This document shows, piece after piece, positions 1 through 38,168 of a stretch of DNA of 64,000 nucleotides (positions are counted from its first letter, which is position 1; the number at the start of each line of letters is the position of its first letter). A program made the translations under genes and the position numbers. The stretch comes from Schmidtea polychroa. Its lineage: Eukaryota. The DNA is taken from the NCBI GenBank assembly GCA_044892525.1, contig CM097886.1, positions 164,474,312 to 164,538,311 of the forward strand. Reading direction: 5' to 3'. The notes below the pieces were generated by a model. The model did not search any database and had not been told where the DNA came from. It saw only the letters and a program-made list of their open reading frames with translations.

Positions 1-42
1 TTAATTTAATTTATTAATATTGTTTATATTTGTTTTAATTAA

Positions 43-558
43 TTGTTATACCTGAATAAAAAATATTCAAATATAATTACATCATTAATGCTTAGCAATA
101 TAAATTATAAAGGAAAATGTTCAGTTTCTCATTTAAAGTTTCCAATGGGAAAACCACAACAAATTATCGATAGAAGTGGAAAGTACCCAATTATGTTTTT
201 CAAATCTGGTAAATGTAGAATAATGGAATGTAGGCAACCAATAAAAGTTGAAGATATACCATTTACAATAGAGGATTTTCAAATTCAATCCATTACTGTA
301 ACTGCAGACATTGGAACAAAAATTGATTTATATGATATATTAAAGAAAACTAATTCCATATATGAACCGGAAATCTTTCCAGCTTTGCGATATGTAAAGT
401 ATAATCCCTTATGCGTTAATGTGTTTGCCAGTGGTAAGATAGTCATACTAGGTATAAAAACATTGGATTATCACGATTTGGTTGAAAATATTCTTAACGA
501 AATTAGATCAATGACTGAAGAGTATGAAATCCTAAATTTCTTACTAACCATTACCTAA
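43..558 (+). CDS. Maverick-encoded compact TBP-like protein (likely start at ATG 88, 156 aa)
   Basis: Motifs LSNINY, MFFKSGKCRIM, FQIQSITVTAD, YEPEIFPALRY and NVFASGKIVILG align with the two TBP repeats (IQNIV, IFSSGKMV, IQNMVGSCD, YEPELFPGL, IFVSGKVVLTG). Confidence 0.85.
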   Translation: MLYLNKKYSNIITSLMLSNINYKGKCSVSHLKFPMGKPQQIIDRSGKYPIMFFKSGKCRIMECRQPIKVEDIPFTIEDFQIQSITVTADIGTKIDLYDILKKTNSIYEPEIFPALRYVKYNPLCVNVFASGKIVILGIKTLDYHDLVENILNEIRSMTEEYEILNFLLTIT

Positions 559-706
559 CAATATGTGTTGTATATGATTGTATATGTAAATATATGTTGT
601 AATACTAGTATATGAATTTGATTGGTTGTTGTACATGACTATGTGTTTCTTGTGTGTTTAAATATTGGTATAAATACAAGTACATTATTTATTTATTTCA
701 TTATAA

Positions 707-1046
707 ATGTTATCCCAATCAATTGATGGTAAGTTACAATTTTAATTTTAAATTTATTTTAATTTTATTTTTAGAAATAATGTATCAAGCTCTTGTTAAT
801 AAGATGATACAACTGTACACAAAAGAACTTTGTGACTTGGTGTTCTGTGCACCAGAAACAAGAAATATTCGAATTCTGGAGGCTACTGGAATCAATTTAA
901 TTTAGTATATTTCAAACTATAAGAAAAATAGAAAAAATTGGATTAAAGATGAGCCCATATGCGATTCACCATGTATGTGCTGTGGAAATTTGAGGATCGC
1001 CAGAAATAAGCTGGAATTAGCTTTCACCATAGAGAGATTGTTATAA
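707..1046 (+). pseudogene. Spliced Maverick accessory 'TGI' gene: exon 707-728, intron 729-774, exon 775-1046, one in-frame TAG at 903
   Basis: GTAAGT...TTTTAG intron of 46 nt. Spliced product is MLSQSIDEIMYQALVNKMIQL...ATGINLI*...ICDSPCMCC. Homologues at 43879-44443 and 63427-63805. Confidence 0.65.
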
Positions 1047-1150
1047 TAAATTATTTTAAATTATTGTTTTTAACTTTTTATTTTTAAAATTTAGTTATTT
1101 AGTTTAAATTTTATTTTGTTTATGTTTTATTTTGTTTATATGTTTAATTT

Positions 1151-1195
1151 ATGTAAATTTGATTGGTTGCACATGTGCCTGATTCAGTATAAATA
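1151..1195 (+). promoter_or_regulatory. Octamer-like / CCAAT (ATTGG) / TATA promoter of the SSB-like gene
   Basis: ATGTAAAT at 1151, ATTGG at 1162, TATAAATA at 1188, ATG at 1229. The 26-nt ATTGG-to-TATA spacing is repeated in Maverick-2. Confidence 0.55.
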
Positions 1196-1228
1196 AAGGT
1201 TTTTTATGATGAATGTGTGCAATTATAA

Positions 1229-1669
1229 ATGTATCTAACAAAAGGAGAAAAAATATCCAATGGTATTGAAACAGTGAAACCTACTCGAACAAAGAAAGAT
1301 TTCAAGCCTGTTCAAGTGTTCCATGACTATAAGATGTATTTCTTGGTGAATGAAATTGAGTACAAGTTATCGAAGCCTGTTACATTGACTAAAACTCAAT
1401 ATTCAAATTTACACGGAAATATATCAAAAGAGGATGTTGATTCAATCAATAAAGTTTTACAACAGATCAATTAAAAATTGAGTTGTACTGAAAACATATT
1501 CATCAATTATCGGCATACAAGATTTCATGATGCTTTTGATGAAATAGAGTTTAAAGAAACAGAGAATTGGTATATCAATATAATAATTCAAGGATATAAA
1601 TTATCCTCCAATGAAGTTATGACACCAATATGAAGGATTGATCAAGCGAGAATTTCTCTTGTATTTTAA
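1229..1669 (+). pseudogene. Maverick accessory gene, putative OB-fold ssDNA-binding protein, two in-frame stops
   Basis: Reading through TAA 1472 and TGA 1631 gives ...FHDAFDEIEFKETENWYINIIIQGY...TPI*RI, collinear with the intact ORF 43212-43625. Confidence 0.65.
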
Positions 1670-2075
1670 TGATCGAGATTTTATATAAAATAAATTTTTG
1701 TATTTTGAAAACTGTCTTTTTATTATTTAATTAAATTAATTTAAAAATTATAGCTCTGGTTAGAGAATAAATCTGTTTGCTTCAAAAGTAATTTTATAAG
1801 TAATCGAGCTTTGATTGATATAAATTATTATTATTATTTTATTATTAATATTATTTTAATATTATTATTTATGGGATTGGTGGCAAAGTGGTGAATTTAC
1901 TTTTTGATTTTTGGTTTTGAAGTTAGGTATGAGGTTCAATTCCAAGTATGGGCGACTTTTCCATCTTGCATCCTCACATAGAGTAGTCAATAGTACTTGA
2001 CTCTCACATAGACCACCTGTGACCACTAAGTATGACGACACAGTTACCATGGTCAGTATATTGAGTCATCAATAA

Positions 2076-2300
2076 GTGGTCAGTTAGTAACAGGTTTGTA
2101 TATGACGTAATTAGCACGCGAGTGGTAAATTAGTAACAATGTGTGTATTATGTAATGGACACGTGAGTGGTCAGTTAGTAACAATGTGTGTATTATGTAA
2201 AGGTCAAGGGTGAGGTCAGTTAGCAACTAAATTTATATTACGTAATAGCCACGCAAATGGTCAGTAACAACTGGGTGTGTATTACATGATCGGCCATATT
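2076..2300. repeat. About 45-bp subterminal tandem repeat (5 copies) in the Maverick TIR
   Basis: GTGGTCAGTTAGTAAC-like units start at 2076, 2122, 2167, 2212 and 2257. Confidence 0.85.
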
Positions 2301-4061
2301 AAGTAATCGTAATACCCCCTTTCGTATCTGACGGGCTCACATCCTTCTACTGTTTGTGAATATCAAGTTGTGTTCATGTCACCAAATTCTGATATGAATA
2401 GTTTCCCCGTCTTTTTTCATTTATCAATTCATGTTATTTATTATTGTAAAATTGAAAGGAAAACAATGCAAGTTCATTCATAGCATTTTCAAAACAAGAT
2501 CTTTCGCAATGATCTTTCAATTTATTCATAATCGCTTTTAAGAAGATTCATTGACATACATTGAAGGTCTTTGATCAGGTTCAATTAAATGTTACAGTTA
2601 AAATCTAAATTTTTCTTTCTGTAGAATCCTTTCAGATCAGGACTTGCAGAAGTTGAGGCAACGTAAAAAGATCATTAAAGGATGAGCAAATGATCTCGAT
2701 TCTTTAATGTTATGAAATTGAAAAACAGAAGGGAGCAATTTGGACATGTCACAATGACTGATAAAGATGGATCATTTAGAGTGGATCAAAAAAAGTATTA
2801 TGAGAAACATATTTCCCGATCAAATTCGTGTCAATTTAGCATGAGATAAGGCAATAAAAAAGAGTTGATGTTGAGATTCTGGAAATGTTAGAGAAATATT
2901 TTAATTATTAATAAAATTACACAAATAAATGATATCAATGAAATGGTAAAGCCATTTGTACAATAAAATATGAGTTCGTGTCTTTTTGGGTGATTGCAGT
3001 TGTAGGTAAAATGGGAAACAAAAGAAATCACAGCCGAATACTTTTATTTCGAATAATCTGACCAAAATTATTTGCTTTTGGAACTTTGTCAACTAGTTTT
3101 CAACTAGATATTTCACTTACCAAAGAATAAGGTTAAATAAATGTTCAATGCATTCACAACAAGATAAGATAAAAGGTTTTGGACTGTTTATTTCTTTCCC
3201 CCATATCATATGCTTAAATGAATGTTTGTATAAATGTTCTATTTAGTTGCAAAACTTACGTTGTATAAATATATGTCATGTCTGCAAGATTCTCACGTGA
3301 CCTCAGCATTATTTACTAATGTATTCGTAAACAATTCGCATTTCATACATTCAAATAATCATCAACAAAATAATGATTCCATATCACAATTTGCGCATTA
3401 TAATGGGTAAATGTTACCGATATTCCTTTCCAAATAAATATTGGAGCGTCCTAACAGCAATAATACTGCTCTCGCCACTCACCAACAGCGCTGATTACAT
3501 TTATTACGAATTGAATGGAACCATTAAAGATTCTGAATGGAATATTTCTTTACTCACCAAAATTTTCGAAGGAATAGTTTTATACGCCACCAATGCAAAT
3601 ACAAGTTTCATCATAAAATTACATTCAGATAATCGGATAGGAACAGTTACTCTAAATGAAATGGCCCCTACTAGCAGGACAATGAGTAAGTAATAATATA
3701 CTGGATATATTATTTGATCCTTCCGGTTCCAGTCAACTGTGCTATTGAACCGATCAATCATTTGACTATTTTGATCAGTTTCTATTCAAGGAGAATTAAA
3801 CTCAATTGCAGAAATGCAACGAATTCGACTTTATTAGCCTCAGATAATGAAGGTAGTTGTTTTTTATAAATAAATATAAATAATTAATATAAATAAATCT
3901 GACCCCTCTCTCCGGTTGGATTTGTGGTTTGCTGATGAAACAGCTAATGGAAGCAAGAGAAAGATATGAAAAGTTAAAAATACAAAATACTTATTACATA
4001 TAGACATAAATATTATAAGAACTTTTTTTCCAATTTCACCACTGATTATTTCTTCCATTGA

Positions 4062-4263
4062 ATTTATTTAAAAGAGAGCTTGAAGAATATAAATCAGTAA
4101 TATATCGATGTTTTTTGATACTCATGACTTTTCGGTACTGCCTTTTTCAAGTGAATTTTAAAATTTTAAAATTCACTTGAAACGGCAGTGCCAAAAAGTC
4201 ATGAGTATCAAAAACATCGATATACTGCTGATTTATATTCTTCAAGCTCTCTTTTAAATAAAT
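4062..4263. repeat. About 200-bp loopless hairpin (foldback) centred on AAAA|TTTT at 4163/4164
   Basis: ATTTATTTAAAAGAGAGCTTGAAGAATATAAATCAG... is the reverse complement of ...CTGATTTATATTCTTCAAGCTCTCTTTTAAATAAAT, with a few mismatches. Confidence 0.9.
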
Positions 4264-4403
4264 ACATATAAATATGTATTTAAAGCGATAATATTTCAAA
4301 GAAATTATAACAATTATAATTTTTTGATTATCTAAGTAAAGGTTCTCAATCACTTAAAATGTTGTATTATGCAGGTTTGTTCTACTTTGTTTATTGGTAC
4401 AAT

Positions 4404-4625
4404 TGTTAAATATGTATATCCATGTATATATGTAGTGTGATTGTGAGTGCATATTATAATAGAGATCGTTAGAGCCCAGCAGTGTCTCCTTTAAAACTTG
4501 TTCGTTGACTGGTGGGATGGTTGTATGTTGTATGTAGTGTTGTAGTAATAAATAAGTATATAATATATTACAACGAACTTAATATAAGAAATTAATTAAA
4601 CTTTACAAAATTTATTTATACAACA
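4404..4625. mobile_element. Probable solo LTR (222 bp)
   Basis: TGTT...AACA termini, near-perfect 5-bp flanking duplication ACAAT/ATAAT and an internal AATAAA. Confidence 0.45.
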
Positions 4626-4761
4626 ATAATATCAAACTTGAGTTTTAGGAGATTAAAGTCGAAATGGGAGCTCCTTTTAACTCGACTTGTAATAGTTATT
4701 CGTAGTGAAAAATCTGGATTATCAGAAAATCGAATCAAATGGAATCAAAATCGAATCAAAC

Positions 4762-7700
4762 CAGTGGCGGATTTAGATTTTGGTGCGTGGGGGCGAGGAA
4801 AATTTTCAGGAGGCGCCATAAATTATGAAGATGGTACTACTTATTTTCGCGAGTATTGAGTAAATACTAATATTATTAAAAAGCATTATATTCAGTAAAT
4901 TTATTCTAGTAAATTTATTGATGTAACAAACAAGTTTATTTATTATTTAAATTGCTTCCTGTGTGATTTCATTGAAGCAATACGATTTATATTTGATTCA
5001 AAGTCAATGTTCTCAGCCAGTTCGCGTTCTATTGAAATTAATGCTAATCCAGACGGACGTTCGTTTGTCATTGTTGATCGCAAATAAATTTTGATGATTT
5101 TCAGTCTACTGAAACTTCTTTCAGCAGTAGCAGATGTAACAGGAAGAGTCAAGTATATTTTATAAAGAATTGCCAAATTGGGAAGTCCTGGCGCCATCTG
5201 TTTTTCAACCAAGAAAGGCAGCACCTCTTTAAGTTGTAGTTCACAAGATAGTAATTGGCGTATTGATGCATACACGTATTTGAAAGTATCATATTCTAGG
5301 ATTGCTTCTTCAATATTAATATCGTTTTTGTAAATGTCGCATAAATTTTGAAAAGATTCTTTATTTTCTTCTGATATTTGTGATGGATCAAGACAGGAGA
5401 ATAAAGCAACAGTGTTATGAAAATCATTAAAACGTTCATCTAGTTGTGTTACAAGTGTATCCAAGACAGTGAAATACGTTTCACATTTGAAGCGTGTAGT
5501 TGGATCATCAACCCTTTCATCTCTGTTAAGTTCACCTGCCATGTGTTTCCTTTTTGCAACTCGCTTTTCTTTAAATTCTGTTTCAACATCTAGTAAGGAA
5601 CAATTTTTGATAATAAATGATTTTACAGCAACATTTAGACTTTCAAAAGCTTTATCACTTCTCATATCAGCAAACTTATTTCTGGCAACATAAATCAATT
5701 GTTTTGCAAACGCAATATCAATGCCCTTTCGTTGCAAATAGTTTGATAGCACAAAGATATTATCTAGCAACTTTTGTAGAAATAGCATCAAAAAAACAAA
5801 AGAATATTTTGTTATCAAAATAGATAGTCCCATAGCTTCTGCTCTGACACTTCCTTTGTGTTCTTTTGATTCCCCAAAATTTATATCTTCTAGAGTAGAT
5901 ATAATAGCGGAGAATGATCCAACAACTGCATCAACTGCATGCTTTCGGCTTGCCCATCTTGTATCAGAAAGTCGTTTTAGAGTATCTACTATCGATTCAT
6001 ATCGAGACTTCTGATGTTCTACGGAGAATATGTAGCCGTGGTAGACTTGATGTAAGGAAAGTATACAACTTTTCTGTTGTACCAAAAAACAACTGAACAT
6101 CACTGTTAAGAGACATTGCTTCAATAGTCACCAAATTCAATGCATGAGAACAACAGTGAACAAAGATGGCATTTGGTGAAAGTGTCTTTATCTTAGTTTG
6201 AAGACCATTTTTAATCCCAGACATCACAGAGGCACCATCATATGCCTGTCCTCTACAAAGTGTCAATGTTTCGCTTTTGTAACTCCGTTAATAATATATT
6301 AGAAAATGCTGCAGCATTACTGTTTTCTAAAGTGTAGAAGCCTATAAATCGTTCAACAACTTGTCCTGATTTTAACACTAATCTTAAAGAAACTGACATC
6401 TGATCAACTCTGGATATATCAATTGTTGAATCAACAATTAGAGAAAAGAATTGTGCAGACCTAACTTCATTATCAATATTTGCGGATAATTCTGAGCCAA
6501 GTGATTGAATTAGGTCATTTTGTACATCATGACATAAATAAAGTTCATTTTTCTTTTCAAACATAAGATGATTGTCCAAAGTGGAATCATATTTAGCCAA
6601 TAAAAATAGCAATTCACGAAAATTTCCAGTATTACTACACTTGTCAGAGCCAGAATGTTTTCTGTGTCCTCTAAATGGCAAACCTTGTTTTGCTAAAAAC
6701 AACGTTGCATTTACCATTCGTTTCAAAACTTCTCTATTTTTTCCACCTGATAACGCTCCTGACTAATCAAACCAGATATCACAGTTTTATCATTTGAAAT
6801 GCGATATTTAGCCAGAAAATATTGACATATTACACTTTGATGTTGATTGGAAGTTTCATGTTTAACGATTTTTTCCATGCCTTTTTTCCAGTTATAAACT
6901 CCAAAATTTGGGTCGGACCATTCCTTGCTATAATTTTCAGTTTTACAATCAGCGAATAACCAGCAAGCTTGGCAATGCATTTTTTGATTTGTTGGTGAAT
7001 AGACAAGCCAATTTCTTTCCTTCTTCATACTACCTTTTCCAAAACATTTTGTGTACCAAGAAATTTGAAACTTGCGCCCCAATTCATCTGTCGGAAATTG
7101 AAATGGTTCATTGAGTCCAGGTTGACATGGTCCGATTTCAAACAATTTTCGTATCAGTTTCGAGCTTATGCTCGTATTAATGTAGAGTCCTGGATCTGTA
7201 GGAAAGTCGGATTGAGGAAAAAGTGATTCTTGTAAAATATCTGAAGCAAGTTGTTCTTCCACTGTATCAAATTCTGAATCACCCTGATTATGTTTCAAGC
7301 CCTGAGCAGGTAATGTTACTGTCTCAGTATTCTCTGCACATGAATGTATAGCTGGGTGTTGTTCATCAACTAGAGATAGTACTTGCTCATCTTCAACAAG
7401 AACTTCAGATGATGTTTCTGTCTCAGCAGGCTCAGCACAGAAACTCGAATGATTAGATGAGTGTTGATCATCAAATACATGCTCATTTTTACCAGAAACT
7501 TCAGTTGATTGAACTACTGGCAGTTTAGACTGTTTAGTTATAAATGATGTTAACTTAATATATTTGCTAGCATCTGCCTTGAGGCTGGCTTCCTTTGCCA
7601 ATTTACGCCTAGATGATCCACTTAATTTGGTAACTGCTTTGCTTTTATTAGTGTCACCAGCTGACTCAGCCATGGCTCTAATTTAAATTTTATTTTAATT

Positions 7701-8292
7701 CAATATTGAATATTATTTTACTATTTCAATAGTAACGCAATAATTTATTTGTCAAAAAAGTCAAAATTGACAATAATTATTATGGTTAGATTTATGTACA
7801 AACACTATACAAGCTTAAAAACTTCAAACAGCCGCTCTTCACTGGAGCTATGTAATATTATTAATATGATGCAGCATAACAGTTGGAGTTGCTTAAATCC
7901 AGTTCAACTTTGTACACAGACAAAACTGTAATAAGAGAAAGGCCAGGCCGTCTGGTTAGTGGCAGTCTCAGCACTGCTGAGTAAGCAGTAATCTGCACAA
8001 CTGAAGAATATGCCTGTTGCTGTGCTGCATCAACTATGTTTAACAACATAGCAGAGTAATAGGTACAATCAATAATAATAATAATCTATAAACGGTGACT
8101 CTGAGCAGCTGTATGCTGCAGTGATAGTAGAATACATTTCAATCCATTTAGCTCTTCCAAATCAAAGATATATTAAATTGTCAGTGTCAGTGATCGGATT
8201 AATCTTAATGCTTGTACACATTCATAAAAATTATCTTTAGGATTCAACAGGCGACTCACCCCCCCCCACGCCTATAGCTAAATCCGCTACTG
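4762..8292 (-). mobile_element. hAT transposon (ZMYM1/TTF-type zinc finger, DUF4371-like class)
   Basis: TIRs CAGTGGCGGATTTAG and CTAAATCCGCTACTG. Flanks AATCAAAC/ATGGAAAC match only 5 of 8. Confidence 0.9.
4943..7673 (-). pseudogene. Frameshifted hAT transposase
   Basis: Four overlapping ORFs carry CQACWLF (zinc finger), LIVDSTIDIS, GQAYDGASVM, HCCSHALNL, SDTRW and PVTSATAERSFSRLK. Confidence 0.92.
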
Positions 8293-10473
8293 ATGGAAAC
8301 TCCTTTTGATTTGGATAATGATAAATATTTGATAATGGATAATGCAGTTTATTGGGCAATATGGTTGGAAAAGTATTCATTTTTTCTTTTATTTTAAGTG
8401 AAACTGTCTAATTTATTGAGGGAAAGAATTAAATATCGAATTCCTTTTGGTTTTTAATTATAATGGATGTACGATAAAGAACGATTTAGACTATTAAAAG
8501 ATGAAATTGAAATTTAATTTCTTTTGCTTTTAATTGTAATAGAAGATATTTTCTTCCATAAGTTTTTTGTTATCTTTCCTTATTGAATTTTTTATCTATT
8601 TATTTATTTTTCAATTCTTCTTTAGTGATAATTCACTATGGTAAATTATCGCTATATAGTTTTTTATATAGAAATTTTAAATCGCGTAAATCGTAAAAAA
8701 TGACAACTTATAACGGATCCTAATTACAAATAAAAAGAAAAATTAAAAAGATACAACAACACATTACATTGACGTTGATGGAACCAAAATTGATATTTAT
8801 CTTTGAACAGGATTAGCAACACCAAATATAAAAATATAATATGTATTTCAAACAGGTACATGTGAACTGACTGGACCGCTAGCACGTTTCCATATTATAA
8901 TTAATTTAAACAAATTTTCATATTAAAGATCATTTCAAGAATCTCCCGGTACCGAAAGATTATTACAAAGCAACGAACACGACATTCATCTGGATGGGAA
9001 ATATTGGTCCGTACGTCGGTTACAATAATGAAACATTTAATCCATTAAAATCACAATTGATTGGTTGTGTTGAATATTTCTATTTCAATAACCAACCAAT
9101 CGCATTGAAAAATCAAAACAATCAAATTTTCCCATCCTGTACCAGCCAGACTGTGACAGAACAAGTCAACAATCGGACAATGAAGTCATCCAGATCAATA
9201 AATGTGCAAATATATGATTGTTCCTTGTCGGGAATTAATGCCAACCGTTGCGATCCAATCGGTGAGGAATTTCTAAATTCAAATTAATTATTAAATTAAT
9301 TAATCAACGAATACTTTCAGAACTGCCCGTCTATAAAGATTCCAACCAATCATATCACAGATATGAGAATAATAATTATAATAAAACAATAAAAATATCC
9401 TTAGTTTGGAAGCAACTTTATTCTAAAGAATTTTGTTTGATGGAGATCAAATTGAGGTGAGATTGTGTTGGGATAAATGGATTATCATGGGCATATTCTA
9501 GAAATGGGACAATAATATTTGTTGTCAATAATATTAATGTTGTTGGCATGTACATGTACAATACTGATGCCGATACTAATCCGTCTCTCATATTATTGGA
9601 TAAAATTTCATTGGATAAAATAAATAAATTATCCATGGCATTCGGAATCTCAGAATTTATGGTCAAGGTGATTTGATGAGTATCCGGGAATTTCATTTGT
9701 TTTAATATTGTAATGGCAGATATTTAACGGGATCCAGATTCATAAATTTATTACTGATTCAATTGGCGCACCAATCAAAATCAATGTTGGAAAATCCCGT
9801 AAAAAACAAATTTGCAGAACATTTGAAGGAATTCTGAGTTTGATTATTTGCATTCTGTAATTGGTTGATGGATGTTGAAACAGGTTTCCAATACGATTCA
9901 TCAGATTTCACGAGATCCGGAAACGGAAATATGAAAGCTAAGGGTCACGGCAATAATTCAGTAGTTGTTAGTTTCATCAAACCTAACAATGTAATTCTCA
10001 TAATTGCGTATAATCTAATTAATTGAATATAAAAAGCCACGAAGTGTTTAGCTGTGTAAAAATTTCGTGCGTGACCTCGTGATTTTAGACCTGAAATGAA
10101 ATCCTAAAAATGGATATTCGTATAAATTTGTTAATGCCTGTTTATGCTGCCAAATTACTTAAATTATTACCAAAGAGTTTCTGATTCTTTTTCAGAGATA
10201 AATGGCGTAGAAATATGTTGGCGGAGATCTGTGGAATTATGTAGAAATTGTCCGCCCATGCAAATGAAGGAAATGAAATTAAATAATGTTGACCAACTGT
10301 GAAAGTATGACTAAGCCTGTTACAGAATTTATAAAAATGTAGATGTTATGAGGGTTATTTAAATGAATAAAGAATATTCAAGCCTTCTAGACTTTGAATG
10401 TTTTCAGGAATATACCAAAACTGAAAAAATTACAAAGGAAGTTAAGATTTATCCAAGATATATACCACTATAC

Positions 10474-12350
10474 CAACGGTGGGCAAATGCGGCTCTTCGT
10501 TGAGTAAACTGCGGCTCATTGATAATTGAATTTTTGATAATTGAATTTGAAAATTGAATTCGATTTTTTTATTTTGAAATTTTTTCAACTGAATTTTTAA
10601 AAAAAAATTTTTTGTTGCAATTGTATTTTCATAAATGTTAAAAATTAACGAAACATTGTTTTTCACATTTTACTGCTTTTTAAAATTATTTTGTAGTAGG
10701 CGGCGCTTTGTTATAACAACGAGAGAGAAGCAATGAAAATAAATTTAGTGAAATTTAGTGAATTTTGATTAGTTAGTATTTTTGTTTGTACAATATTGCG
10801 GTCGTTTGTATATTTTAGTATAGTTTTCTATTCGTGTTTTTTGAAAAATTTGGTAAGAAGATTTTTATGAAGCATTTTAAAATTTTAAATTAATTAAAAT
10901 TAAATTTATGTCTTTTTATTATTTTGTTTAAATTTCAGTAATATAAGTTATTCAAATTTATTATTACAATGACCTCAGAAAACATCAAAAAACGAAAATA
11001 CAAACAAGAAAATAGAACTTTTCAAGAAGAATGGACAGAAAAGTTTTTTTTTATTGACAATAATGGTAAATCGTTGTGTCTTATTTGTAAAGTTACAATT
11101 TCCAACTACAAAGTAACCAATTTACGTCAACACTATGAAGTAAGTCATCCACACTTATCAATTCAATATCCACTCAATTCAAAATTGCGAAGAGAAAAAC
11201 TTAAGTCATTGCAATCAGGGCTTCAAAACCAACAAGGACTAATGTCTTCTTTTAGTCGAGAAGATGACAGTGCCAACGAAGCTAGTTTTTTGATAGCTTG
11301 GAATATAGCTCGTGCTAAACATACATATGGAGAAGGTGAATTTATTAAGAGAAACTTGGAAGAAGTGATTAAAGTTTTGGATCCGGATAACTCAAAACTA
11401 CATAAATTGATCTCACGTATTCCTATGTCACGTCGTACAACTGCGCGTCGAATTGGCCAAATTAGCGAAAATGTTGAAAATAATTTGATGTGTGATTTAA
11501 AAAATTGTACAGCATTCAGTTTAGCTCTCGACGAGTCTACTGACATTCAGGATGTTCCACAATTAGCCGTTTTTGTCAGCTTTGTATCTTCTGACGTAAA
11601 AGTAAAGGAAGAAATTTTAGACCTAGTAGCTCTTAAAGAAACAACTCGCGGTATCGATGTCAAAACTGTGCTTGATGTAGTGATGGACAAGTTTGAATTG
11701 GCGCGTGATAAACTTGTAAGTGTTGCGACAGACTGCAATGATGGGGAAAAATCAAGGTCTCATTGGTCTTTTAAACAGAGATCCAAATATTCCTCATTTC
11801 TTATCTCTTCAATGCATAATTCATCGCGAGCATCTCATAGCGAAGTACTTTAAATACGAAAATGTGTGGAAGATTGTTTTGAAGATTGTGAATTTAATTA
11901 GAACAAATGCCAAAACACATCGTCAATTTAAAAAAATATCCACACTTAAAACAAGTTGCTTGCCGTCTAATTTCAATTTTTGGTACAACATATTGTTGTG
12001 AATCTTTGTACTCCACAATGAAGTTCGTGAAGTCGAAATATCGTTCACAGTTGACCAATCAGCATCTTACAGAATTGCTGCGAACAGCTTTAACAAAGTA
12101 TACACCAAATTTCAAAGATTTGACCAAAAGTCTTCGTTAATTCAAGAAATTTTATTACTTTTTATTAATGGATTTTTATTATATTTTATGTTTGTTACTT
12201 AAATTTTGAAATAATTGTTTTTAATAGCGTTTAAGTCTTTTTTAATCAAATTAATGAAATAAAAAAAAATATGTAGTTCACTATGGTGGCTCTTTAAAAA
12301 ATAAATTTTCGGAAAATGTCTCTCATTGAACTCATGCGTGCCCACCCTTG
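10474..12350 (+). mobile_element. Buster/Charlie-type hAT (GTF2IRD2-like), internally deleted
   Basis: TIRs CAACGGTGGGCA and TGCCCACCCTTG with a perfect 8-bp TSD CACTATAC (central TA). Confidence 0.93.
10969..12140 (+). pseudogene. GTF2IRD2/Charlie-like transposase relic
   Basis: FQEEWTEKFFF, CLIC BED finger, FSLALDESTD, HCIIHREHL-like and TTYCCESLYS motifs. Frameshifts are present and the middle is deleted. Confidence 0.88.
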
Positions 12351-13166
12351 CACTATACCATCCAGATATTGTGTTCAATGACCTCATAAGTTGTCCTAAA
12401 TCTGAATCAAATGAAGAGATAAAAGAAAATGAGAAACAATTTTTGGGTAATATTGTAGAACTTGCAAAAGTGACAATGAACTTTATATGGAAAAATAAAA
12501 CCTACATGTGAAACAATTTGTTATTCTGACTTTATCATTTCCATTCGAGTCCAATTTCCTATAAGCCTCACCACGTAGACAAAAGTAAATTGTAATGAAT
12601 TTATTTCCTCTATGTTATCAATTAGCTATATTTTATCTCTATTAACCTCCTGATTTAGCACAATTTCAATGATTATTTATGATAAACGAAATTTATATAT
12701 TATTTCTTCCAGAATAAAGATATTTGGATTCTGATCGGAGGTTTCTCAATTGTCATAGCAGCATTATTCACCATTTATTGGGTCTTTAGAAAGCAAATGA
12801 AAAGAAGATTCAAAGAGTAAATATTCAATTATATTAAAACAAATTTTATTAATTTCCTCATCAAGAATAAATAGAGATCGGAGTGAACCAATGCATTACG
12901 AGGTCGTTGATAATATCTACACGATCTCCCCTCCTATTAGAGAAAGCTGTGACTATGGAATGATTGAATCGGAATATGCATCTATAAAATGAAATCAAAA
13001 TCAAATATCTTTTGTTTATTTTCAAAATAGTTTCAATGTAATAAAGAATAATTCATTTGCAAAGTTCATAGTTCATTCGATTCGGGAAAATGAATGAAAG
13101 GATATGAATATGAACTTGATTAATCAAAACATAAATATACTTAAAATAAATTAATTTCAACAAAAC

Positions 13167-13277
13167 TGTTTTAATAATAAGACGATTGATCTAACTTGAT
13201 CATTTTGACCTCTATCTATAATGAATGATCTATATAATAGGGAATGACGTCGTTTCTAGGCCACATTTTGGTACCCC
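13167..13277 (+). mobile_element. Possible short LTR (13167-13265) followed by a PBS-like TTTTGGTACCCC
   Basis: TGT...ACA ends. No partner LTR or pol is visible before the N-gap. Confidence 0.25.
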
Positions 13278-15146
13278 TCTTACTACTTAGTAAATAACAT
13301 TAGGCGATAAATGTATCACTACTTTGTAAAGTGGGATAAGTTTCATCTATTTATTTGCTCTCTGATCCGGACTCTTTTAATACTCCTTTTCTAACTCTTC
13401 AGTTCCTATTATAATTCCCCTTTAGTTCTTAGCTTTGTTCCTCAATTTCCTATTGTCAGTTTCTTCTTCCCTACCTGAGGCTACTGCTCATTATCTGAAT
13501 TTGAAGTTTGCTTATATACTCCAATAATCGTTATAATTGACTCAATTGGTTTTGACTTCCTTAGTTATCATTCTCTAATTTGTTATTTCTGTTGACCCTC
13601 TTAGTAATTCCCCTTCTTTGCGATTACCCTAGTTTATCCGACTGTTTGGACAATTACCCTCTAAATTCTCAGTTTTTTTATTCTCTCAAATTGCCGCGCT
13701 CGGGGTTTCTTCATCGTTCGAGTTCTCCATTGGCTCGGACTTCTCATTAGCTCCGGTTTCCCATTAGTCAATTAATTAATTAATTAATATTTTGTATTTT
13801 TTCATATTTGCCTGTTTTACGACTATTTCTAAACATTTTCTAACAATTTCTTGCTCGCTGTCTTCTTCACCATTTCCTAATCTATCCCTCTCTCGTTTTC
13901 CAGCTTCAATTTCGATAACATTTCACTTTATTCCAATTACTCAGGTTTGGGCATTTTTCCATTACGTGTCTGATTGTATCCTTTATAGTTCTCTTTTTAT
14001 CAGATCTTTCTTTGCCATTAATTCTCTGCTTGACCGCGATTCATTTCGTCTAATTTCGGTTTTCTTTTTATTCGGAACTATTCAATTTGATATAATTTAA
14101 TAATNNNNNNNNNNNNNNNNNNNNNNNNNNNNNNNNNNNNNNNNNNNNNNNNNNNNNNNNNNNNNNNNNNNNNNNNNNNNNNNNNNNNNNNNNNNNNNNN
14201 NNNNNNNNNNNNNNNNNNNNNNNNNNNNNNNNNNNNNNNNNNNNNNNNNNNNNNNNNNNNNNNNNNNNNNNNNNNNNNNNNNNNNNNNNNNNNNNNNNNN
14301 NNNNNNNNNNNNNNNNNNNNNNNNNNNNNNNNNNNNNNNNNNNNNNTTCACAACAATAGAAATAAGATAGCACAATGAAACTTATACAATTTTACAATAA
14401 TTTAGCCTAGAGCAAGGATGTAAACCTCAAAAGACACCAAGAGCCGCATAAGGTATTTTGAGTACCCCGCGGTAACTGTGACATTTTGTATTATATTTAA
14501 TTAATTTGCAACGGCTTTATTAAGCTATTCCATCATAACGCTAAATATAATAGATCTGATCGAAATTTTGAAGGATGGGATAAAAAGAAAACAATTTCCA
14601 TTATCATAAAAATAATTAATTTATTACAAATACAATTATTTTTGCCATGAGGTTTGATGCCTCTTTTCCATAAAAATTGTTTTTATATTCGACTTAAATG
14701 CATTTGTCGCTCCCACCTTCATTAAGGATGACAAATGTTTATCATTATCTTTGTTATTTGGGATGTTTTAGTTAATTTTTCGATATTTGTTTAAAAAGAA
14801 AACAACCATATATATTATATATTACATAACTACACTTTAAAATCAAAATCCCTCAAAGAAATTAAACATTTTCATAACTTGGATCAATTCGATAGAATTG
14901 TCGGAAGGCAACAGAGGTGAATTCCAAGATATCTCAGAAATACCCAAAAAGTTTAACGGTTCAAGACGAATAAAGAAAAAGAATAAAGATAAATATTTAT
15001 TTCGAAACTGCTGGAAAATCTTTTTTATTTAAGATTTAACTCTTAGAGCTTTCGTTTTTCAGTGGAGAAACTTAATTTATCAGTTGCCCCACACTGGCGG
15101 ACCGATTTCCACTGGTAATACATCTTTAATGAATAAAAGGGAACAA

Positions 15147-15536
15147 CTGCTCTTTCAAAATGACATTTTCGATGACGCTATTTACAAATTCCACTTCGAT
15201 ACAAAATTGTATCTTTACAGAACCCATTTCTCTGATTACATTAATAAATTTAAATTTTCAACAATCATTTTAACTATGGCATATGATTTACGAAAATCAT
15301 AATTTACAACCGGTTCCAGTGATCCACCATATTGGATTGTACTATTAATTATTATTTCATCACCAGAGTTGGAGAGAGTTATTATATCAAGATTATTTTG
15401 ATAGTCAGAAAGAGATCACATCAGTTTCAAAATTAGTAAGAGTTACTGTATTATGTAGGACTATATCATCGTCTTCAGAATCGTAGAGAATAATGATGTG
15501 ATTATTATTATTTAAATTTTTAATTTTAGATGGATG
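15147..15536 (-). pseudogene. Relic of a Maverick pPolB N-terminal region (mirror of 22621-23010)
   Basis: Reverse complement of 22621-23010. Confidence 0.6.
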
Positions 15537-15699
15537 AGAGTCACTAATAATCAAATTAGATTTTCAGTAGGTAGTGTTAGTGGCCACCTGCAACAATTAC
15601 CCCCCAGGGATGGCGGGTAAAATTGTTGCAACTTTTGATTACGCAATTGTTGTAACTCACATTTTTTGCTTTCAGGGATTTTTAGTACAAAATTTTTTT

Positions 15700-17990
15700 T
15701 TCAGACTATAGTGAGGGTCCTATAGTCTCCATGGTCCTGGGATTTTCAATACAAAAAAATTTTTTCAATACAAAATCCGACTATCACTAAAAAGCATGGA
15801 TTATTCAGACTATAGTGAGGGGGTCTCCAAGGTCCTGGGATTATCAATACAAAAATATTTTTTTCAATAAAAAAGCCTGGTAATTCAAGGTCTCAATTTA
15901 TTTTCAATACAAAAAACCAAGGATAAGTCAGTATTATTTGGGTGGGCCTCTTTGGTCCTAGGATTTTCAATACATAAAGCGGTCTACACTAAAAAAGCGT
16001 GGTAAATAAAAGATAAATAGGAAAATAATGGTCCAAATTTTTGAATTACAGTAAATTATGGGTTCAAATAAGTTAATTAAGGTCCAAATTTTAAAATTAA
16101 AGTAAATAATGGTCCAAATTTAAAAATAAATTTAAAGTAACCAATGGGTTCAAATAAGTTAATTAAGGTCCAAATTTAACTTAAAATAAATTTAGGTTCT
16201 AAAAAATGAAATTAAAGTAAATTAATCTCTAAAATTTTAAATTAAAGTAAATTTACTTTAATCTAATAATTGGATTAAAGTAATCAATGGGCTCAGATTT
16301 TTAAATTAAAGTAAATAATGGTTCAAATAAGTAAATTAAGGTTTAGATTTTTGAATTATAGAAAAATTAAAGTTCGAATTTTTAAATTAAAGTAATCAAT
16401 GGTCTAAAAATTGAATCAAAGTTAATTAAGGTTCAAAAATAAAAATTAAAGTAAATTATGGTCTAAAATTTTGAATTATAGTAAATTAAGGTTCTAAAAA
16501 GTTAAATTAAAATTAATTAAGGATAAAATTTAAAAATTAAGTAATCAATGGTCAAAAATTTAAATAAAAGTTAAACAAATAAATTAAAGTAATAAGTTTT
16601 TAAATAATTAAATTAAAGTAATGTAATAAGTAAATTAAAGTAAGATTTTAAAATTTTTTAGCAAAAAGTTTGAATAACCAACGGCTTTTGAGAAATAAAA
16701 TTTCTTAAGAATTAATGGAAATTTATATGGAATAATTTTTTAAGATAATTTTTATTAAAATTTTAATGATATATTTTTCAAAGACAAATTTTAATAATTA
16801 TATTTAATAATAATAATTCAACAACAAACCAACGATCAGATACCTAATTACCAAATACAAGATACCAACAACTTAGTACACAAACCAGTAACTTACGAAC
16901 ATGTATTTACAACCAGATACCTACAACTAGATACTAACAACCAGTTACCTGCTACCAAGTATTTACAACCAGCTACGAAATACTAACAACCAAAAACAAG
17001 CAGCAACTAGCAGCAACCAAGTACTCACAACCGACAACAACCAGGTACTAAGCATTATCAATCAACTACTAAGTACTTACAAACTTCTACAAGATACCTG
17101 ATACCAAGTACAAAATACCAAGTATTAAGCATTGTCAACTAGATACCAAGTACTTACAACCAGATGACCACATGATAATATTGGATAAATATGACTATAA
17201 GGGTTATATTTAGTTGTTAAGTAAATTATGGTGTAAAATTAAGTAATAAAAGATGATTAAGTAAATTAAGGATAAGTAAATTAAAGTTAAAAATTTTAAA
17301 TCAAGTAATCAATGGTTCAAATTAAAGTTAAATAAGTAAATTAAAGATATAATTTTTAAATAAGTAAAGTAATGTAATAAGTAAATTAAAATAAGATTTT
17401 TAAATTTATTAACAAAAAGTTAGAAAAATTATCAATGTTTGAGAAATAAAAATTTTAAATGAAAATTCATATGAAATAATTTTTAAAGTCAAATTTTAAT
17501 GTAAATTTTAATGGAATATTTTTTAAGCTAATTTTTAATGGAATTTTAAACGGAATAATTTTTTAAGTTAATTTTTTATGGAAATTTTAATGAAATAATT
17601 TTCAAAGATAATTTTCAATGAAAATTTTAATGGATTAATTTTTTAAGTTAATTTGTATGAAATATTTTTTTAAGATAATTTTAAATACAAATTTCAATGA
17701 AATATTTTTCAAATTCAAATGAAACTTTTAATCGAATAATAATAATAATATTAATAAAAAAAAATAATATTAATGTTATAAAATAATTATAATAATAATA
17801 ATAATATTAATAAAAATAATTATAATAATAATAATAAAAATAATAATAATAATTCAACAGTTACCAACAATCGGTTACTAAATATTTTTAACTAGGTGCT
17901 AACAAATAAGTACCAAATACTTACAAAATGATACCATGTACTAACTAACTCTCAAGCAACCAGATACTTACAACTAACTACTTACAATCA
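15700..17990. repeat. Stacked degenerate minisatellites: about 100-bp CAGACTATAGTGAGGG...GGTCCTGGGATT units, about 30-bp AAATTAAAGTAAAT..GGTCC units, CAACCAGATACT-type units and AAT runs
   Basis: Blocks visible at about 15700-15975, 16020-16650, 16830-17175 and 17200-17990. Confidence 0.75.
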
Positions 17991-18359
17991 ACTAAATATT
18001 CTTCATTATATTTTATGAAATGTTTTTTTAAATTAATTTTTTTTATTTGTCTTCAAAAATATTTTTAATTACAATCAGTAGAAAAACCTTTTCAAAATGT
18101 CTAAATTTAACAAAAATGTTGATTTTCATCAAAAATTGAATAATTGTCAACACAACCACTTCAAAACACCACGTGGAATTGAGGATAATTTTAATTACAA
18201 TGAGAGACTAATGAATTCTAATTTACAGAACATTCTTCTTTTAAATGATAACTACTGACTTATTATTGGAAAGTAAAAATTGCGTTCAATAAATAGTTAT
18301 TGTTAATTCGTTTTAATATATATACTCGGAGTTTATCCGACAGGATGTTTTGACCCTCT

Positions 18360-18434
18360 AAGGGTATTGGTCATAAGGGTACTGCTCGTAATGGTATTAG
18401 TCGTAAAGGTACCGGTCGTAAGGATATTGGTCAC
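18360..18434 (+). repeat. 15-bp minisatellite x5 followed by C14
   Basis: AAGGGTATTGGTCAT / AAGGGTACTGCTCGT / AATGGTATTAGTCGT / AAAGGTACCGGTCGT / AAGGATATTGGTCAC. Confidence 0.85.
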
Positions 18435-18833
18435 TCTCAACCCCCCCCCCCCCCACCTACCAATTAACTAGTTACCATGTACTAACAACTAGGTCTCGAA
18501 CAACTAAATACTAAACACTTACAACCATGTACTAACAACCACCATCAAAACCCATCGAGAAATTAACAAATATCAACCTACAACTATGTAATAACAAATT
18601 GATCTTTAAAAGAAAATGCTCTTCACTTGAGAATATTGGATGAAAAATTAATTGAACTAAAAGCACTTTTAAGATTTACCACTAACTAGGTCAAAATTGA
18701 TTAAATTATTGTAAAAATTTAAATTATTCAAAATATACCAAATAAATATTATAAAAATGTAATTAATGGACAGGAAAGAACTTTAAATTCTAGTCATTAA
18801 TCATCCAGTAAATAAAAAAAATACTGATCATTC

Positions 18834-20129
18834 AAGTTAATATGAATCAACTAAGTTAATAAATAAGATTGAATAAATAAATTAAAATTAATTAATTTGA
18901 ATTATTTTTTAAAAGTAATACATGTCAATATCAATGTTTTAAGGGAAATTGCAATACATTATTCAGTTATGAATCAATAATAATGTGAAATTATATCGTT
19001 TTATTAGGTTGTGATTAATCCATTGTATATTAATTTAGATTTATGTTTTAGAACAATGTTTTATTAAATTTTCTATTAATTATCTAGGGTTTTATTAAGT
19101 TAGTGTTAATGATCAATTTACTTGGTTTTGACAATGAAAACTTTACAGATAACTGTGATCGACATCAACTTTAAATTATTTTTATCTTTATTTAGACGGA
19201 GAATGACAAAAGTTGAGAAATATTGATCTTTATTGGAAGAAATTTATCGTGTGATTTTAATTATTAATTAAATTGGTTGAATATCGGTAAAAATGATCAT
19301 TTGAAGAAATATATTTTATTGAATGGATAAATTTAATCTTTCATTGAGACCTAGTCAGTTATATTTATTTTAAATTTTGAGTACAATGATTTACAAAAAT
19401 TTACAGTGATTAACAAAAATTTAATTATAACCGGTTTTATCATTAGATTTTATAAATTATTTAGGGTTAATGACCAAATTATTTTACATGTTTTATGGGG
19501 AAATATTCGTGATAATAGGAATTAAAGTTAGAATTATAGTCATTTAAATGGGATTTTAAGCAATCTTATTAGTCTGAGGTAAATATATAATCTTTTATAG
19601 TTATTTTTCGATAAAATACTAATCTTTAATTATTTCAGGGAAATTTGATGCTTTTTAGATGATTTTAATGAAATATGTGTAATAATATGAATTAAGGGTA
19701 GAAATATAGTCATTTAAGGGATTTTAAGGAATCTTATTAGTTTGAGGAGAATATATGATCTTTGACAAGTATTTATCATTAAAATACCAATCTTTAAATA
19801 TTGATATATTTAGGGGAAATGATTCTTTTTAGATGATTTTATTGGAGAATTCACTTGGATATACCAATTATTGTCATTTAAATGAATTTAATGGTTTATT
19901 AGATGTTATCATTAGTTATCAGTCTCTTTTGGAATTTAATGATAATTATTTTTATTGTAGATTGCTGACTTTGATAATTGTAATGAATTTATACTGATTT
20001 TTTGAATATATTGAGCAATCAGTCAATCAATTTGAGTACATGTATTATTTTTAAAAAATAATTCAAATTAATTAATTTTAATTTATTTATTCAATCTTAT
20101 TTATTAACTTAGTTGATTCATATTAACTT
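18834..20129. repeat. Innermost 92-bp inverted repeat (18834-18925 and 20038-20129) enclosing a 1.1-kb spacer
   Basis: AAGTTAATATGAATCAACTAAG...TAATACATGT matches its reverse complement with one mismatch. Confidence 0.92.
19537..19860 (+). repeat. About 170-bp degenerate tandem duplication in the palindrome spacer
   Basis: TAGTCATTTAA..GGGATTTTAAG.AATCTTATTAGT.TGAGG occurs at about 19537 and 19708. Confidence 0.65.
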
Positions 20130-22620
20130 AAAAAACATTTCATAAAATATAATGAAGAATATTTAGTTGATTGTAAGTAGTTAGTTGTAAGTATCTGGTT
20201 GTTTGAGAGTTAGTTAGTACATGGTATCATTTTGTAAGTATTTGGTACTTATTTGTTAGCACCTAGTTAAAAATATTTAGCAACCGATTGTTGGTAACTG
20301 TTGAATTATTATTATTATTTTTATTATTATTATTATAATTATTTTTATTAATATTATTATTATTATTATAATTATTTTATAACATTAATATTATTTTTTT
20401 TATTAATATTATTATTATTATTCGATTAAAAGTTTCATTTGAATTTGAAAAATATTTCATTGAAATTTGTATTTAAAATTATCTTAAAAAAATATTTCAT
20501 ACAAATTAACTTAAAAAATTAATCCATTAAAATTTTCATTGAAAATTATCTTTGAAAATTATTTCATTAAAATTTCCATAAAAAATTAACTTAAAAAATT
20601 ATTCCGTTTAAAATTCCATTAAAAATTAGCTTAAAAAATATTCCACTAAAATTTACATTAAAATTTGACTTTAAAAATTATTTCATATGAATTTTCATTT
20701 AAAATTTTTATTTCTCAAACATTGATAATTTTTCTAACTTTTTGTTAATAAATTTAAAAATCTTATTTTAATTTACTTATTACATTACTTTACTTATTTA
20801 AAAATTATATCTTTAATTTACTTATTTAACTTTAATTTGAACCATTGATTACTTGATTTAAAATTTTTAACTTTAATTTACTTATCCTTAATTTACTTAA
20901 TCATCTTTTATTACTTAATTTTACACCATAATTTACTTAACAACTAAATATAACCCTTATAGTCATATTTATCCAATATTATCATGTGGTCATCTGGTTG
21001 TAAGTACTTGGTATCTAGTTGACAATGCTTAATACTTGGTATTTTGTACTTGGTATCAGGTATCTTGTAGAAGTTTGTAAGTACTTAGTAGTTGATTGAT
21101 AATGCTTAGTACCTGGTTGTTGTCGGTTGTGAGTACTTGGTTGCTGCTAGTTGCTGCTTGTTTTTGGTTGTTAGTATTTCGTAGCTGGTTGTAAATACTT
21201 GGTAGCAGGTAACTGGTTGTTAGTATCTAGTTGTAGGTATCTGGTTGTAAATACATGTTCGTAAGTTACTGGTTTGTGTACTAAGTTGTTGGTATCTTGT
21301 ATTTGGTAATTAGGTATCTGATCGTTGGTTTGTTGTTGAATTATTATTATTAAATATAATTATTAAAATTTGTCTTTGAAAAATATATCATTAAAATTTT
21401 AATAAAAATTATCTTAAAAAATTATTCCATATAAATTTCCATTAATTCTTAAGAAATTTTATTTCTCAAAAGCCGTTGGTTATTCAAACTTTTTGCTAAA
21501 AAATTTTAAAATCTTACTTTAATTTACTTATTACATTACTTTAATTTAATTATTTAAAAACTTATTACTTTAATTTATTTGTTTAACTTTTATTTAAATT
21601 TTTGACCATTGATTACTTAATTTTTAAATTTTATCCTTAATTAATTTTAATTTAACTTTTTAGAACCTTAATTTACTATAATTCAAAATTTTAGACCATA
21701 ATTTACTTTAATTTTTATTTTTGAACCTTAATTAACTTTGATTCAATTTTTAGACCATTGATTACTTTAATTTAAAAATTCGAACTTTAATTTTTCTATA
21801 ATTCAAAAATCTAAACCTTAATTTACTTATTTGAACCATTATTTACTTTAATTTAAAAATCTGAGCCCATTGATTACTTTAATCCAATTATTAGATTAAA
21901 GTAAATTTACTTTAATTTAAAATTTTAGAGATTAATTTACTTTAATTTCATTTTTTAGAACCTAAATTTATTTTAAGTTAAATTTGGACCTTAATTAACT
22001 TATTTGAACCCATTGGTTACTTTAAATTTATTTTTAAATTTGGACCATTATTTACTTTAATTTTAAAATTTGGACCTTAATTAACTTATTTGAACCCATA
22101 ATTTACTGTAATTCAAAAATTTGGACCATTATTTTCCTATTTATCTTTTATTTACCACGCTTTTTTAGTGTAGACCGCTTTATGTATTGAAAATCCTAGG
22201 ACCAAAGAGGCCCACCCAAATAATACTGACTTATCCTTGGTTTTTTGTATTGAAAATAAATTGAGACCTTGAATTACCAGGCTTTTTTATTGAAAAAAAT
22301 ATTTTTGTATTGATAATCCCAGGACCTTGGAGACCCCCTCACTATAGTCTGAATAATCCATGCTTTTTAGTGATAGTCGGATTTTGTATTGAAAAAATTT
22401 TTTTGTATTGAAAATCCCAGGACCATGGAGACTATAGGACCCTCACTATAGTCTGAAAAAAAAATTTTGTACTAAAAATCCCTGAAAGCAAAAAATGTGA
22501 GTTACAACAATTGCGTAATCAAAAGTTGCAACAATTTTACCCGCCATCCCTGGGGGGTAATTGTTGCAGGTGGCCACTAACACTACCTACTGAAAATCTA
22601 ATTTGATTATTAGTGACTCT

Positions 22621-23010
22621 CATCCATCTAAAATTAAAAATTTAAATAATAATAATCACATCATTATTCTCTACGATTCTGAAGACGATGATATAGTCCT
22701 ACATAATACAGTAACTCTTACTAATTTTGAAACTGATGTGATCTCTTTCTGACTATCAAAATAATCTTGATATAATAACTCTCTCCAACTCTGGTGATGA
22801 AATAATAATTAATAGTACAATCCAATATGGTGGATCACTGGAACCGGTTGTAAATTATGATTTTCGTAAATCATATGCCATAGTTAAAATGATTGTTGAA
22901 AATTTAAATTTATTAATGTAATCAGAGAAATGGGTTCTGTAAAGATACAATTTTGTATCGAAGTGGAATTTGTAAATAGCGTCATCGAAAATGTCATTTT
23001 GAAAGAGCAG
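22621..23010 (+). pseudogene. Degenerate Maverick pPolB N-terminal relic
   Basis: HPSKIKN..IIILYDSEDDD, IQYGGSL and IREMGSVKIQFCIEVEF match IPAKIRK..IIISDDEE, NQIGGSI and IEKMGSVKVQFTVLIQF of ORF 50982-52568. Confidence 0.6.
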
Positions 23011-32800: not shown

Positions 32801-33402
32801 TAAAGAATCTTTTCAAAATTTATGCGACATTTACAAAAACGATATTAATATTGAAGAAGCAATCCTAGAATATGATACTTTCAAATACGTGTATGCATCA
32901 ATACGCCAATTACTATCTTGTGAACTACAACTTAAAGAGGTGCTGCCTTTCTTGGTTGAAAAACAGATGGCGCCAGGACTTCCCAATTTGGCAATTCTTT
33001 ATAAAATATACTTGACTCTTCCTGTTACATCTGCTACTGCTGAAAGAAGTTTCAGTAGACTGAAAATCATCAAAATTTATTTGCGATCAACAATGACAAA
33101 CGAACGTCCGTCTGGATTAGCATTAATTTCAATAGAACGCGAACTGGCTGAGAACATTGACTTTGAATCAAATATAAATCGTATTGCTTCAATGAAATCA
33201 CACAGGAAGCAATTTAAATAATAAATAAACTTGTTTGTTACATCAATAAATTTACTAGAATAAATTTACTGAATATAATGCTTTTTAATAATATTAGTAT
33301 TTACTCAATACTCGCGAAAATAAGTAGTACCATCTTCATAATTTATGGCGCCTCCTGAAAATTTTCCTCGCCCCCACGCACCAAAATCTAAATCCGCCAC
33401 TG
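29874..33402 (+). mobile_element. Mirror copy of the ZMYM1-class hAT; transposase relic 30491-33221
   Basis: TIRs CAGTAGCGGATTTAG ... CTAAATCCGCCACTG. Confidence 0.9.
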
Positions 33403-33538
33403 GTTTGATTCGATTTTGATTCCATTTGATTCGATTTTCTGATAATCCAGATTTTTCACTACGAATAACTATTACAAGTCGAGTTAAAAGGAGCTCCCAT
33501 TTCGACTTTAATCTCCTAAAACTCAAGTTTGATATTAT

Positions 33539-33760
33539 TGTTGTATAAATAAATTTTGTAAAGTTTAATTAATTTCTTATATTAAGTTCGTTGTAATATA
33601 TTATATACTTATTTATTACTACAACACTACATACAACATACAACCATCCCACCAGTCAACGAACAAGTTTTAAAGGAGACACTGCTGGGCTCTAACGATC
33701 TCTATTATAATATGCACTCACAATCACACTACATATATACATGGATATACATATTTAACA
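33539..33760. mobile_element. Mirror copy of the probable solo LTR
   Basis: Reverse complement of 4404-4625. Confidence 0.45.
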
Positions 33761-38121: not shown

Positions 38122-38168
38122 TTAATTAAAACAAATATAAACAATATTAATAAATTAAATTAATTAAA

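Follow-up and report, generated by a model that had tools for sequence, protein, structure and literature searches.

What is a gene for a TATA-binding protein (TBP) doing in a Maverick transposon? The stretch of DNA analysed here (the window, 64,000 nucleotides of a Schmidtea polychroa contig) was reported in the initial annotation to have TBP-like ORFs at four places. Pfam does find a TBP at all four, but two of them are one gene and another is a decayed fragment. Positions 1..38163 form a near-perfect inverted duplication with arms 99.97% identical, a centre near 19080 and a continuation of at least 10 kb before the window start. The genes at 88..558 (+) and 37606..38076 (-), whose proteins are 99.4% identical, lie in the two arms and are therefore one gene, coding for a family-1 Maverick TBP of 156 aa which is recognized by Pfam and by a structure model. 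The ORF had been taken to start at 43; the actual start is the ATG at 88. It should be noted that the duplication (window 1-38163 together with locus L177) has arms of at least 29 kb and is either very recent or an assembly fold-back. The family-2 gene at 44474..44911 (-) has an open frame, lacks the start codon of its family and has its first ATG (44866) 15 codons downstream of the start in its relatives. The family-3 copy at 63000..63402 (+) is a decayed fragment truncated at the 5' end, as seen from Pfam and from comparison with relatives: there is a stop upstream of the ORF at 63010, the stirrup is degenerate, no ATPase adjoins, and the match to its family is confined to 63000-63500 (86%), while intact relatives lie head-to-head with an ATPase. 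The E-values for PF00352 are 1.5e-16 (88-558), 1.8e-14 (the ORF at 44474) and 1.6e-6 (the ORF at 63010), and a match to this TBP profile scores 60.4 bits, above the curated cut-off of 22.9. The three proteins, first described as divergent paralogues, are instead orthologues from three Maverick families and are 45-55% identical.

The head-to-head arrangement with an A32-like packaging ATPase, which had been noticed from the beginning, is seen at 38076/38169 and at 44911/45014; the ATPase partner of the copy at 88 lies just before the window start. Downstream of the family-1 ATPase (38169..38781, in two frames), and like it on the + strand, are a basic, core-protein-like ORF (38803..39318), an rve integrase recognized by Pfam (39380..40372), a putative minor capsid gene in two frames (40348..41372) and the 5' part of the major capsid gene (41757..42569). 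The family-2 ATPase at 45014..45640 (+; Pox_A32, E 1.6e-7) is followed by the remnant of an adenain-like protease (48932..49252, +) and by a broken and internally deleted gene for protein-primed polB (51000..53468, +). Pfam matches to pPolB, rve integrase, A32-like ATPase and adenain protease were obtained on window ORFs or their relatives, and the TBP family's own polB was recognized by similarity. The labels "basic core-like" and "minor capsid" were given by position (for the basic ORF also by composition) or by known motifs and have no Pfam match; the same goes for an ORF which we take, from its position or from known motifs, to be a DEDD nuclease. A relative of the capsid protein (locus L046, 54% identical) folds as a double jelly roll, and its model (pLDDT 66) matches the mavirus and Sputnik capsids with an E-value of 1e-12. 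The 137-aa non-virion ORF at 43212..43625 (-), with a canonical TATA near 43666, has no match in Pfam or Atlas and no family assigned. Its family-1 counterpart lies downstream of the TATA at 1188, and the gene is present in 7 of 9 loci otherwise listed without an accessory gene. Remnants of hAT transposase and LTR-retrotransposon integrase, unrelated to the Mavericks, are found at 4943-7673, 10969-11853, 26313-33221, 57636-58934 and 61769-62554.

The copies in the window are fragments. In a search of the genome (781 Mb) 150 of 4017 candidates were scored, and all 150 are at least 92% identical to the copy at 44474. Two whole copies, of 16.7 and 16.6 kb, have terminal inverted repeats (TIRs) of 656-658 bp at 99% identity; they start with AGT and have a length within the 15-20 kb of Mavericks/Polintons, and both encode TBP, ATPase, integrase, capsid, protease and polB. 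Near a TIR a 105-aa ORF (L172:8233-8547) is found behind a canonical TATA, with a Bcl-2 match which is weak (E 2e-4) and below the cut-off. Related elements carry variable cargo: a ubiquitin-conjugating enzyme (L052:225-719), a dual-specificity phosphatase (L040:4008-4316), a KilA-N protein (L104:7142-7999) and a RING finger protein (L087:13315-13893).

The gene is widespread. The initial search gave 93 homologues of the Maverick TBP. When a profile was used, 65 cluster representatives reached E <=1e-30, with cellular TBPs appearing only lower down. A metagenome scan using a single TBP protein had no matches; the scan using a TBP alignment found 83 stretches, 80 of which were kept as loci. A core Maverick gene is present in 36 of the 80, in 25 of the 31 which are at least 3 kb long and in 18 of the 20 of at least 4 kb, and the two loci of at least 4 kb without one both have the 137-aa neighbour. 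Trees of TBP and ATPase, made from 23 loci with both genes, share a deep split (100/100) that sets a long-TBP clade apart from a short-TBP one, with an identity of about 38% between their ATPases; towards the tips resolution is poor and the two trees do not agree throughout. Among 174 measurable sequences 106 are short and 34 long. The ratio dN/dS is 0.16-0.34 in the seven between-family pairs listed and has a median of 0.22 in 47 metagenome pairs, from a set of 101 intact ORFs in which the pairs are not independent. The TBP-like gene is a core gene of a whole lineage of Mavericks/Polintons, with many copies in this genome.

The protein of 145-165 aa has no extra domain. The AlphaFold2 model of the Maverick TBP (pLDDT 95.3) is a full two-repeat saddle, which aligns to human TBP over 144 of 179 residues at 2.4 A with Z 12.8; overall 144-145 residues align at 2.4 A with Z 12.5-12.8, and Foldseek gives E 1e-9. 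The initial annotation had named three outcomes which would speak against its reading, namely no saddle fold, a dN/dS near 1, and homologues mostly outside Mavericks. All three went the other way, with a saddle predicted at the values just given, a dN/dS of about 0.2-0.3, and a core Maverick gene in 18 of the 20 longest loci. Its description of the two repeats was also borne out: the second repeat keeps the stirrup and both phenylalanines (YEPEIFP, F97 and F113 in 88-558), and the first is shortened with F38 as the single Phe, and has no helices either. Residues 1-74 of the model contain no helix of four or more residues, so that the eukaryotic N-lobe helices H1 and H2 with their basic regulator patch are missing; the corresponding segments have 34 and 20 residues versus 47 and 33 in the reference.

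To survey the residues 189 relatives were aligned to P0224, a plant-like TBP from the search. The mapping is a sequence alignment in which repeat-1 strand 2 can be placed in more than one register, and the base-contact positions were assigned provisionally on P0224 by means of the TBP motifs. F38, F97 and F113 are kept in 97-99% of the relatives, and the stirrup glutamates E93 and E95 in 91 and 99%; N4, P98, V119 and a hydrophobic residue at 36 are kept too. At base-contact positions (a list of these is given in PMC12209930) the near-invariant changes are V to R44 (96%), T to M46 (99%), L to N111 (99%), N to S or T68, V to T or S70 and V to N6 (75%). With T to mostly L121, 7 of the 11 non-Phe positions are altered compared with cellular TBP. 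Three of the four intercalating phenylalanines are kept; an aromatic residue beside the conserved repeat-1 proline is found in 18 of 177 sequences. According to Ravarani et al. (PMC7221094) the two C-lobe stirrup glutamates are the contact for TFIIB and Brf, Brf1 and Brf2 included, and the basic patch on N-lobe helix H2 is a common site for TFIIA, TAF1, Brf, Mot1 and NC2. Taken together with the survey this indicates that the TFIIB surface has been kept, that the regulator surface has been deleted in the short clade, and that the face towards the DNA was remodelled and has since stayed constant.

Which promoters could such a protein read? The initial annotation named two TATA boxes, one at 1188 and one at 43666, but these are most likely not the target. 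Both precede the 137-aa non-virion ORF and are of the canonical kind which whole elements have before the TBP gene, the 137-aa ORF and the 105-aa ORF; the site specific to this lineage is YATAAACR, found before the virion genes. In the window this motif is found on the + strand at 38136..38143, 33 nt before the start of the family-1 ATPase (with its mirror at 21..28 on the - strand, preceding the ATPase just outside the window), at 38770..38777 before the basic ORF at 38803, at 39314..39321 before a small ORF and the integrase, at 41715..41722 inside the upstream ORF and 42 nt before the major capsid ATG, at 44978..44985, 36 nt before the start of the family-2 ATPase, and at 45626..45633 before a basic ORF at 45659. 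The small ORF starts with Met-Gly 10 nt after its YATAAACR and, in a different frame, runs into the beginning of the integrase gene (39314-39400, and likewise 46210-46300).

The motif was counted in stretches of 90 nt preceding the start codons inferred for the 80 metagenome loci and for window positions 37000-54000. Near-duplicates were removed, and an ORF was left out if it had no usable start or too short a flank; the regions upstream of the 137-aa ORF were kept outside the count and read by eye. At -60 to -15, mostly 31-41 nt upstream, ATAAAC precedes the ATPase in 21 of 21 cases (shuffles 1.0) and the basic ORF, the next gene after the ATPase, in 17 of 17 (shuffles 0.75). The other frequencies are 7/10 for the major capsid, 9/14 for the putative minor capsid, 10/14 for the DEDD-like ORF and 6/7 for PLA2. 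The motif is rare in this interval before the protease (1/5), the integrase (3/13), the small ORF before the capsid gene (1/7) and polB (0/3), and for the first three of these sites are seen further upstream. The TBP gene itself has it in just 2 of 54 cases, with a canonical TATAWAWR in 24 of the 54. Over the gene classes the shuffles give an expectation of 0.04-1.7. In an unbiased count ATAAAC is the top 6-mer, found in 71 of 88 regions against 4.5 expected, with the context YATAAACR, positions peaking at -38 to -34, and the reverse complement seen once. Of 22 ATPase sites 19 are covered by no ORF on the same strand, and the motif at the ATPase therefore does not reflect a coding constraint; the site of the capsid gene is within the upstream ORF. 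The first position of the motif is C in 16 of 31 sites of the long-TBP clade versus 3 of 40 of the short one, which is one clade contrast and goes with a GC difference. A reading of ATAAAC as poly(A) signal was rejected: an A precedes it in only 3% of the sites, and the gene upstream of the ATPase points away (this genome). Contigs from four sequencing runs, presumed to be of RNA, cover the region, though contigs cannot show starts; in a single record the contig stops 10 nt short of the ATPase ATG and carries a tail resembling an adapter.

A second Maverick family in the same genome, with a double jelly roll, PLA2-integrase, A32 ATPase and a polB 29% identical, serves as a control. No match to the TBP profile is found in its four TIR-bounded copies (4/4) nor in a fifth, rearranged stretch, and a TBP match in a sixth stretch belongs to an adjoining element of the TBP family. 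ATAAAC precedes 1 of 54 ORFs in this TBP-less family versus 10 of 28 in the TBP family, at equal GC content. The control family represents one lineage, and the comparison amounts to one independent contrast. A search of the genome for polB found no third lineage: all 30 loci obtained resemble the polB of the TBP family (54-65%) more than that of the control. In scans of viral contigs the only TBPs were five distant ones, and neither the Maverick ATPase nor the capsid had a relative there, hence no further TBP-less control. In the TBP-less family (G000:C1:253006017-253021115, L236-L238 and three copies) 37 of 54 ORFs have a TAAATG or TAAA(A)ATG start, a form found in 0 of 28 ORFs of the TBP family. 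We take these starts to resemble the poxvirus late promoter, and they may belong to a different late-promoter system.

We propose a model in which the mini-TBP binds YATAAACR, recruits host TFIIB and Pol II and starts the virion genes, so making an early-to-late switch; on the evidence of conserved residues and promoter words we hold this to be probable. The redirection of host Pol II to Maverick promoters, which the initial annotation had suggested, thereby has strong indirect support. The model postulates that host TBP transcribes the mini-TBP and the other non-virion genes from canonical TATA boxes. The mini-TBP would then read YATAAACR through its rebuilt, more polar concave face, preferring it over TATAAAAG, and the kept stirrup glutamates would dock host TFIIB. 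Loss of both repeat-1 helices would remove the surface for TAF1, Mot1/BTAF1, TFIIA and Brf and set the protein free of host control, and the capsid, packaging and protease genes would thereby be expressed late. The downstream half of the TATA box is the part that cellular TBP touches with its N-terminal repeat. The distinctive C of the motif is in the downstream half, and three fixed changes and the lost Phe are in the N-terminal repeat.

Host TBP could, on the other hand, read YATAAACR as a weak TATA variant, the Maverick protein being a decoy for TFIIB or a blocker of host promoters. We consider this unlikely, but it has to be taken seriously, as the TFIIB-contact glutamates are kept and wild-type TBP binds a TATA box with C at the C position of the motif, the C(-25) variant (PDB 1qn3), by way of Hoogsteen pairs (PMC4402545); tolerating this C, host TBP may read YATAAACR, and the idea stays alive. 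A decoy would, however, account neither for the motif nor for the invariant new residues of the DNA face (R44, M46 and N111, 96-99%), which it does not need, and the idea is at variance with the use of canonical TATA by the non-virion genes of the same elements while the virion genes keep the C, and with a motif missing from the TBP-less family of the same host. It is also rather improbable that the protein binds the motif or other DNA for a job other than Pol II initiation, such as repressing virion genes when integrated, recruiting Pol III via Brf or binding single-stranded DNA. One intercalating Phe is lost, three of the substitutions match those of Giardia TBP, which prefers single-stranded DNA (PMC12209930), and Brf1/2 use the same glutamate (PMC7221094); yet the motif keeps a distance from the ATG (most often -38 to -34) typical of a Pol II TATA box followed by a short leader, it stands before genes that code for proteins, and the N-lobe surface for Brf is deleted.

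Two further explanations disconnect the gene from the motif or from the element. If the motif were the site of a host factor unrelated to the TBP gene, a Forkhead protein would be a candidate, having the core RYAAAYA. ATAAACA matches this core, and an A follows ATAAAC in 81% of 77 sites. We find this explanation very hard to sustain, as a G follows in 16%, the position is fixed as in a TATA box, and GTAAAC, the other common form, is found in just 3 of 88 virion-side upstream regions, and the reverse complement in none. The gene could finally be a captured host TBP pseudogene or a passenger, from a host with at least six TBP-family genes. This is largely refuted by the dN/dS of 0.2-0.3, by conservation across lineages with ATPases about 38% identical, and by a tree in which a branch (SH-aLRT 94, not starred) separates the 14 Maverick TBPs included from the six host paralogues and the other TBPs. 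We give this origin next to no credence.

How does the protein compare with known ones? It is like cellular and archaeal TBP (PF00352) in its two-repeat saddle, in three of the four intercalating phenylalanines and in the TFIIB stirrup, and unlike them in an identity of about 25%, one lost Phe and the deletion of both repeat-1 helices in the short clade. The TBP-like proteins of NCLDV (phycodna-, mimi- and asfarviruses) share the viral TBP fold with it (best E 3.6e-8). They have lost the N-lobe regulator signature, the first stirrup Glu is conserved in only about 40% of them, and most NCLDV encode their own TFIIB (PMC7221094). In the Maverick proteins, by contrast, the first stirrup Glu is conserved in 91%, and no TFIIB-family match in Pfam was obtained among the element ORFs scanned, a scan in which a very divergent TFIIB could be missed. 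Of 21 genomic TFIIB matches 7 were inspected, and none of these belongs to an array of Maverick genes. In the host genome, tandem arrays of divergent TFIIB paralogues (at least 13, intronless, nearly identical to each other and 300 aa long) are found at G000:C3:38.2-39.1 Mb and C1:23.8-24.2 Mb (L247-L250).

In beta- and gammaherpesviruses a vTBP (KSHV ORF24, EBV BcRF1) with a TBP fold, kept phenylalanines and a polar DNA face brings host Pol II to TATT late promoters; ORF24 is described as large and multi-domain, part of a six-protein viral complex, binding Pol II directly, and modelled to be incompatible with TFIIB (10.1101/2025.08.25.672222). The two systems share a virus-encoded TBP fold and a non-canonical TATA before genes that are late or, in the Mavericks, presumably late, a likeness in the way of working only. 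The Maverick protein, in contrast, is a bare saddle of 145-165 aa which keeps the TFIIB glutamates; it has neither the Pol II-binding domain nor, as far as was found, any counterpart of the five viral partners. Structural similarity to BcRF1 is weak (E 0.024), and an independent origin is likely.

The elements share TIRs, pPolB, rve integrase, A32-like ATPase, adenain and double-jelly-roll capsid with the Mavericks/Polintons (adintoviruses) treated by Starrett et al. (2021; PMC8502044). A TBP is labelled on at least one map in their Fig. 5 without discussion, hence the presence of this gene in an element of the kind has a precedent. The main text of that paper, as far as available, names no TBP carrier, no lineage-wide gene and no promoter motif. 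Our literature search, which did not reach subscription papers, Repbase entries and most of the Starrett supplement, found neither a TBP common to a Maverick lineage nor a YATAAACR promoter described.

The finding bears on how animal Mavericks switch on their capsid genes and on their need for a helper virus. With somewhat more confidence than doubt we suggest that a large Polinton lineage has a self-contained late-gene programme, in which one 145-aa TBP, without the host-regulated surfaces and re-specified for YATAAACR, would alone redirect host TFIIB and Pol II to the virion genes. We know of no smaller viral transcription switch than one 145-aa TBP. As factor and promoter word come as a pair, a small protein and a site of 8 bp are all that is needed to test the model, and YATAAACR could be used as a late-gene marker for annotating these elements. 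If the model is true, the mini-TBP is a TBP whose specificity has been altered in nature, and from it one could learn what residues alter the recognition of TATA and what surfaces are dispensable. The vTBP strategy of the herpesviruses would then have been invented a second time, independently, and the "transposons" would be likely to have kept a nuclear virus cycle that needs no helper.
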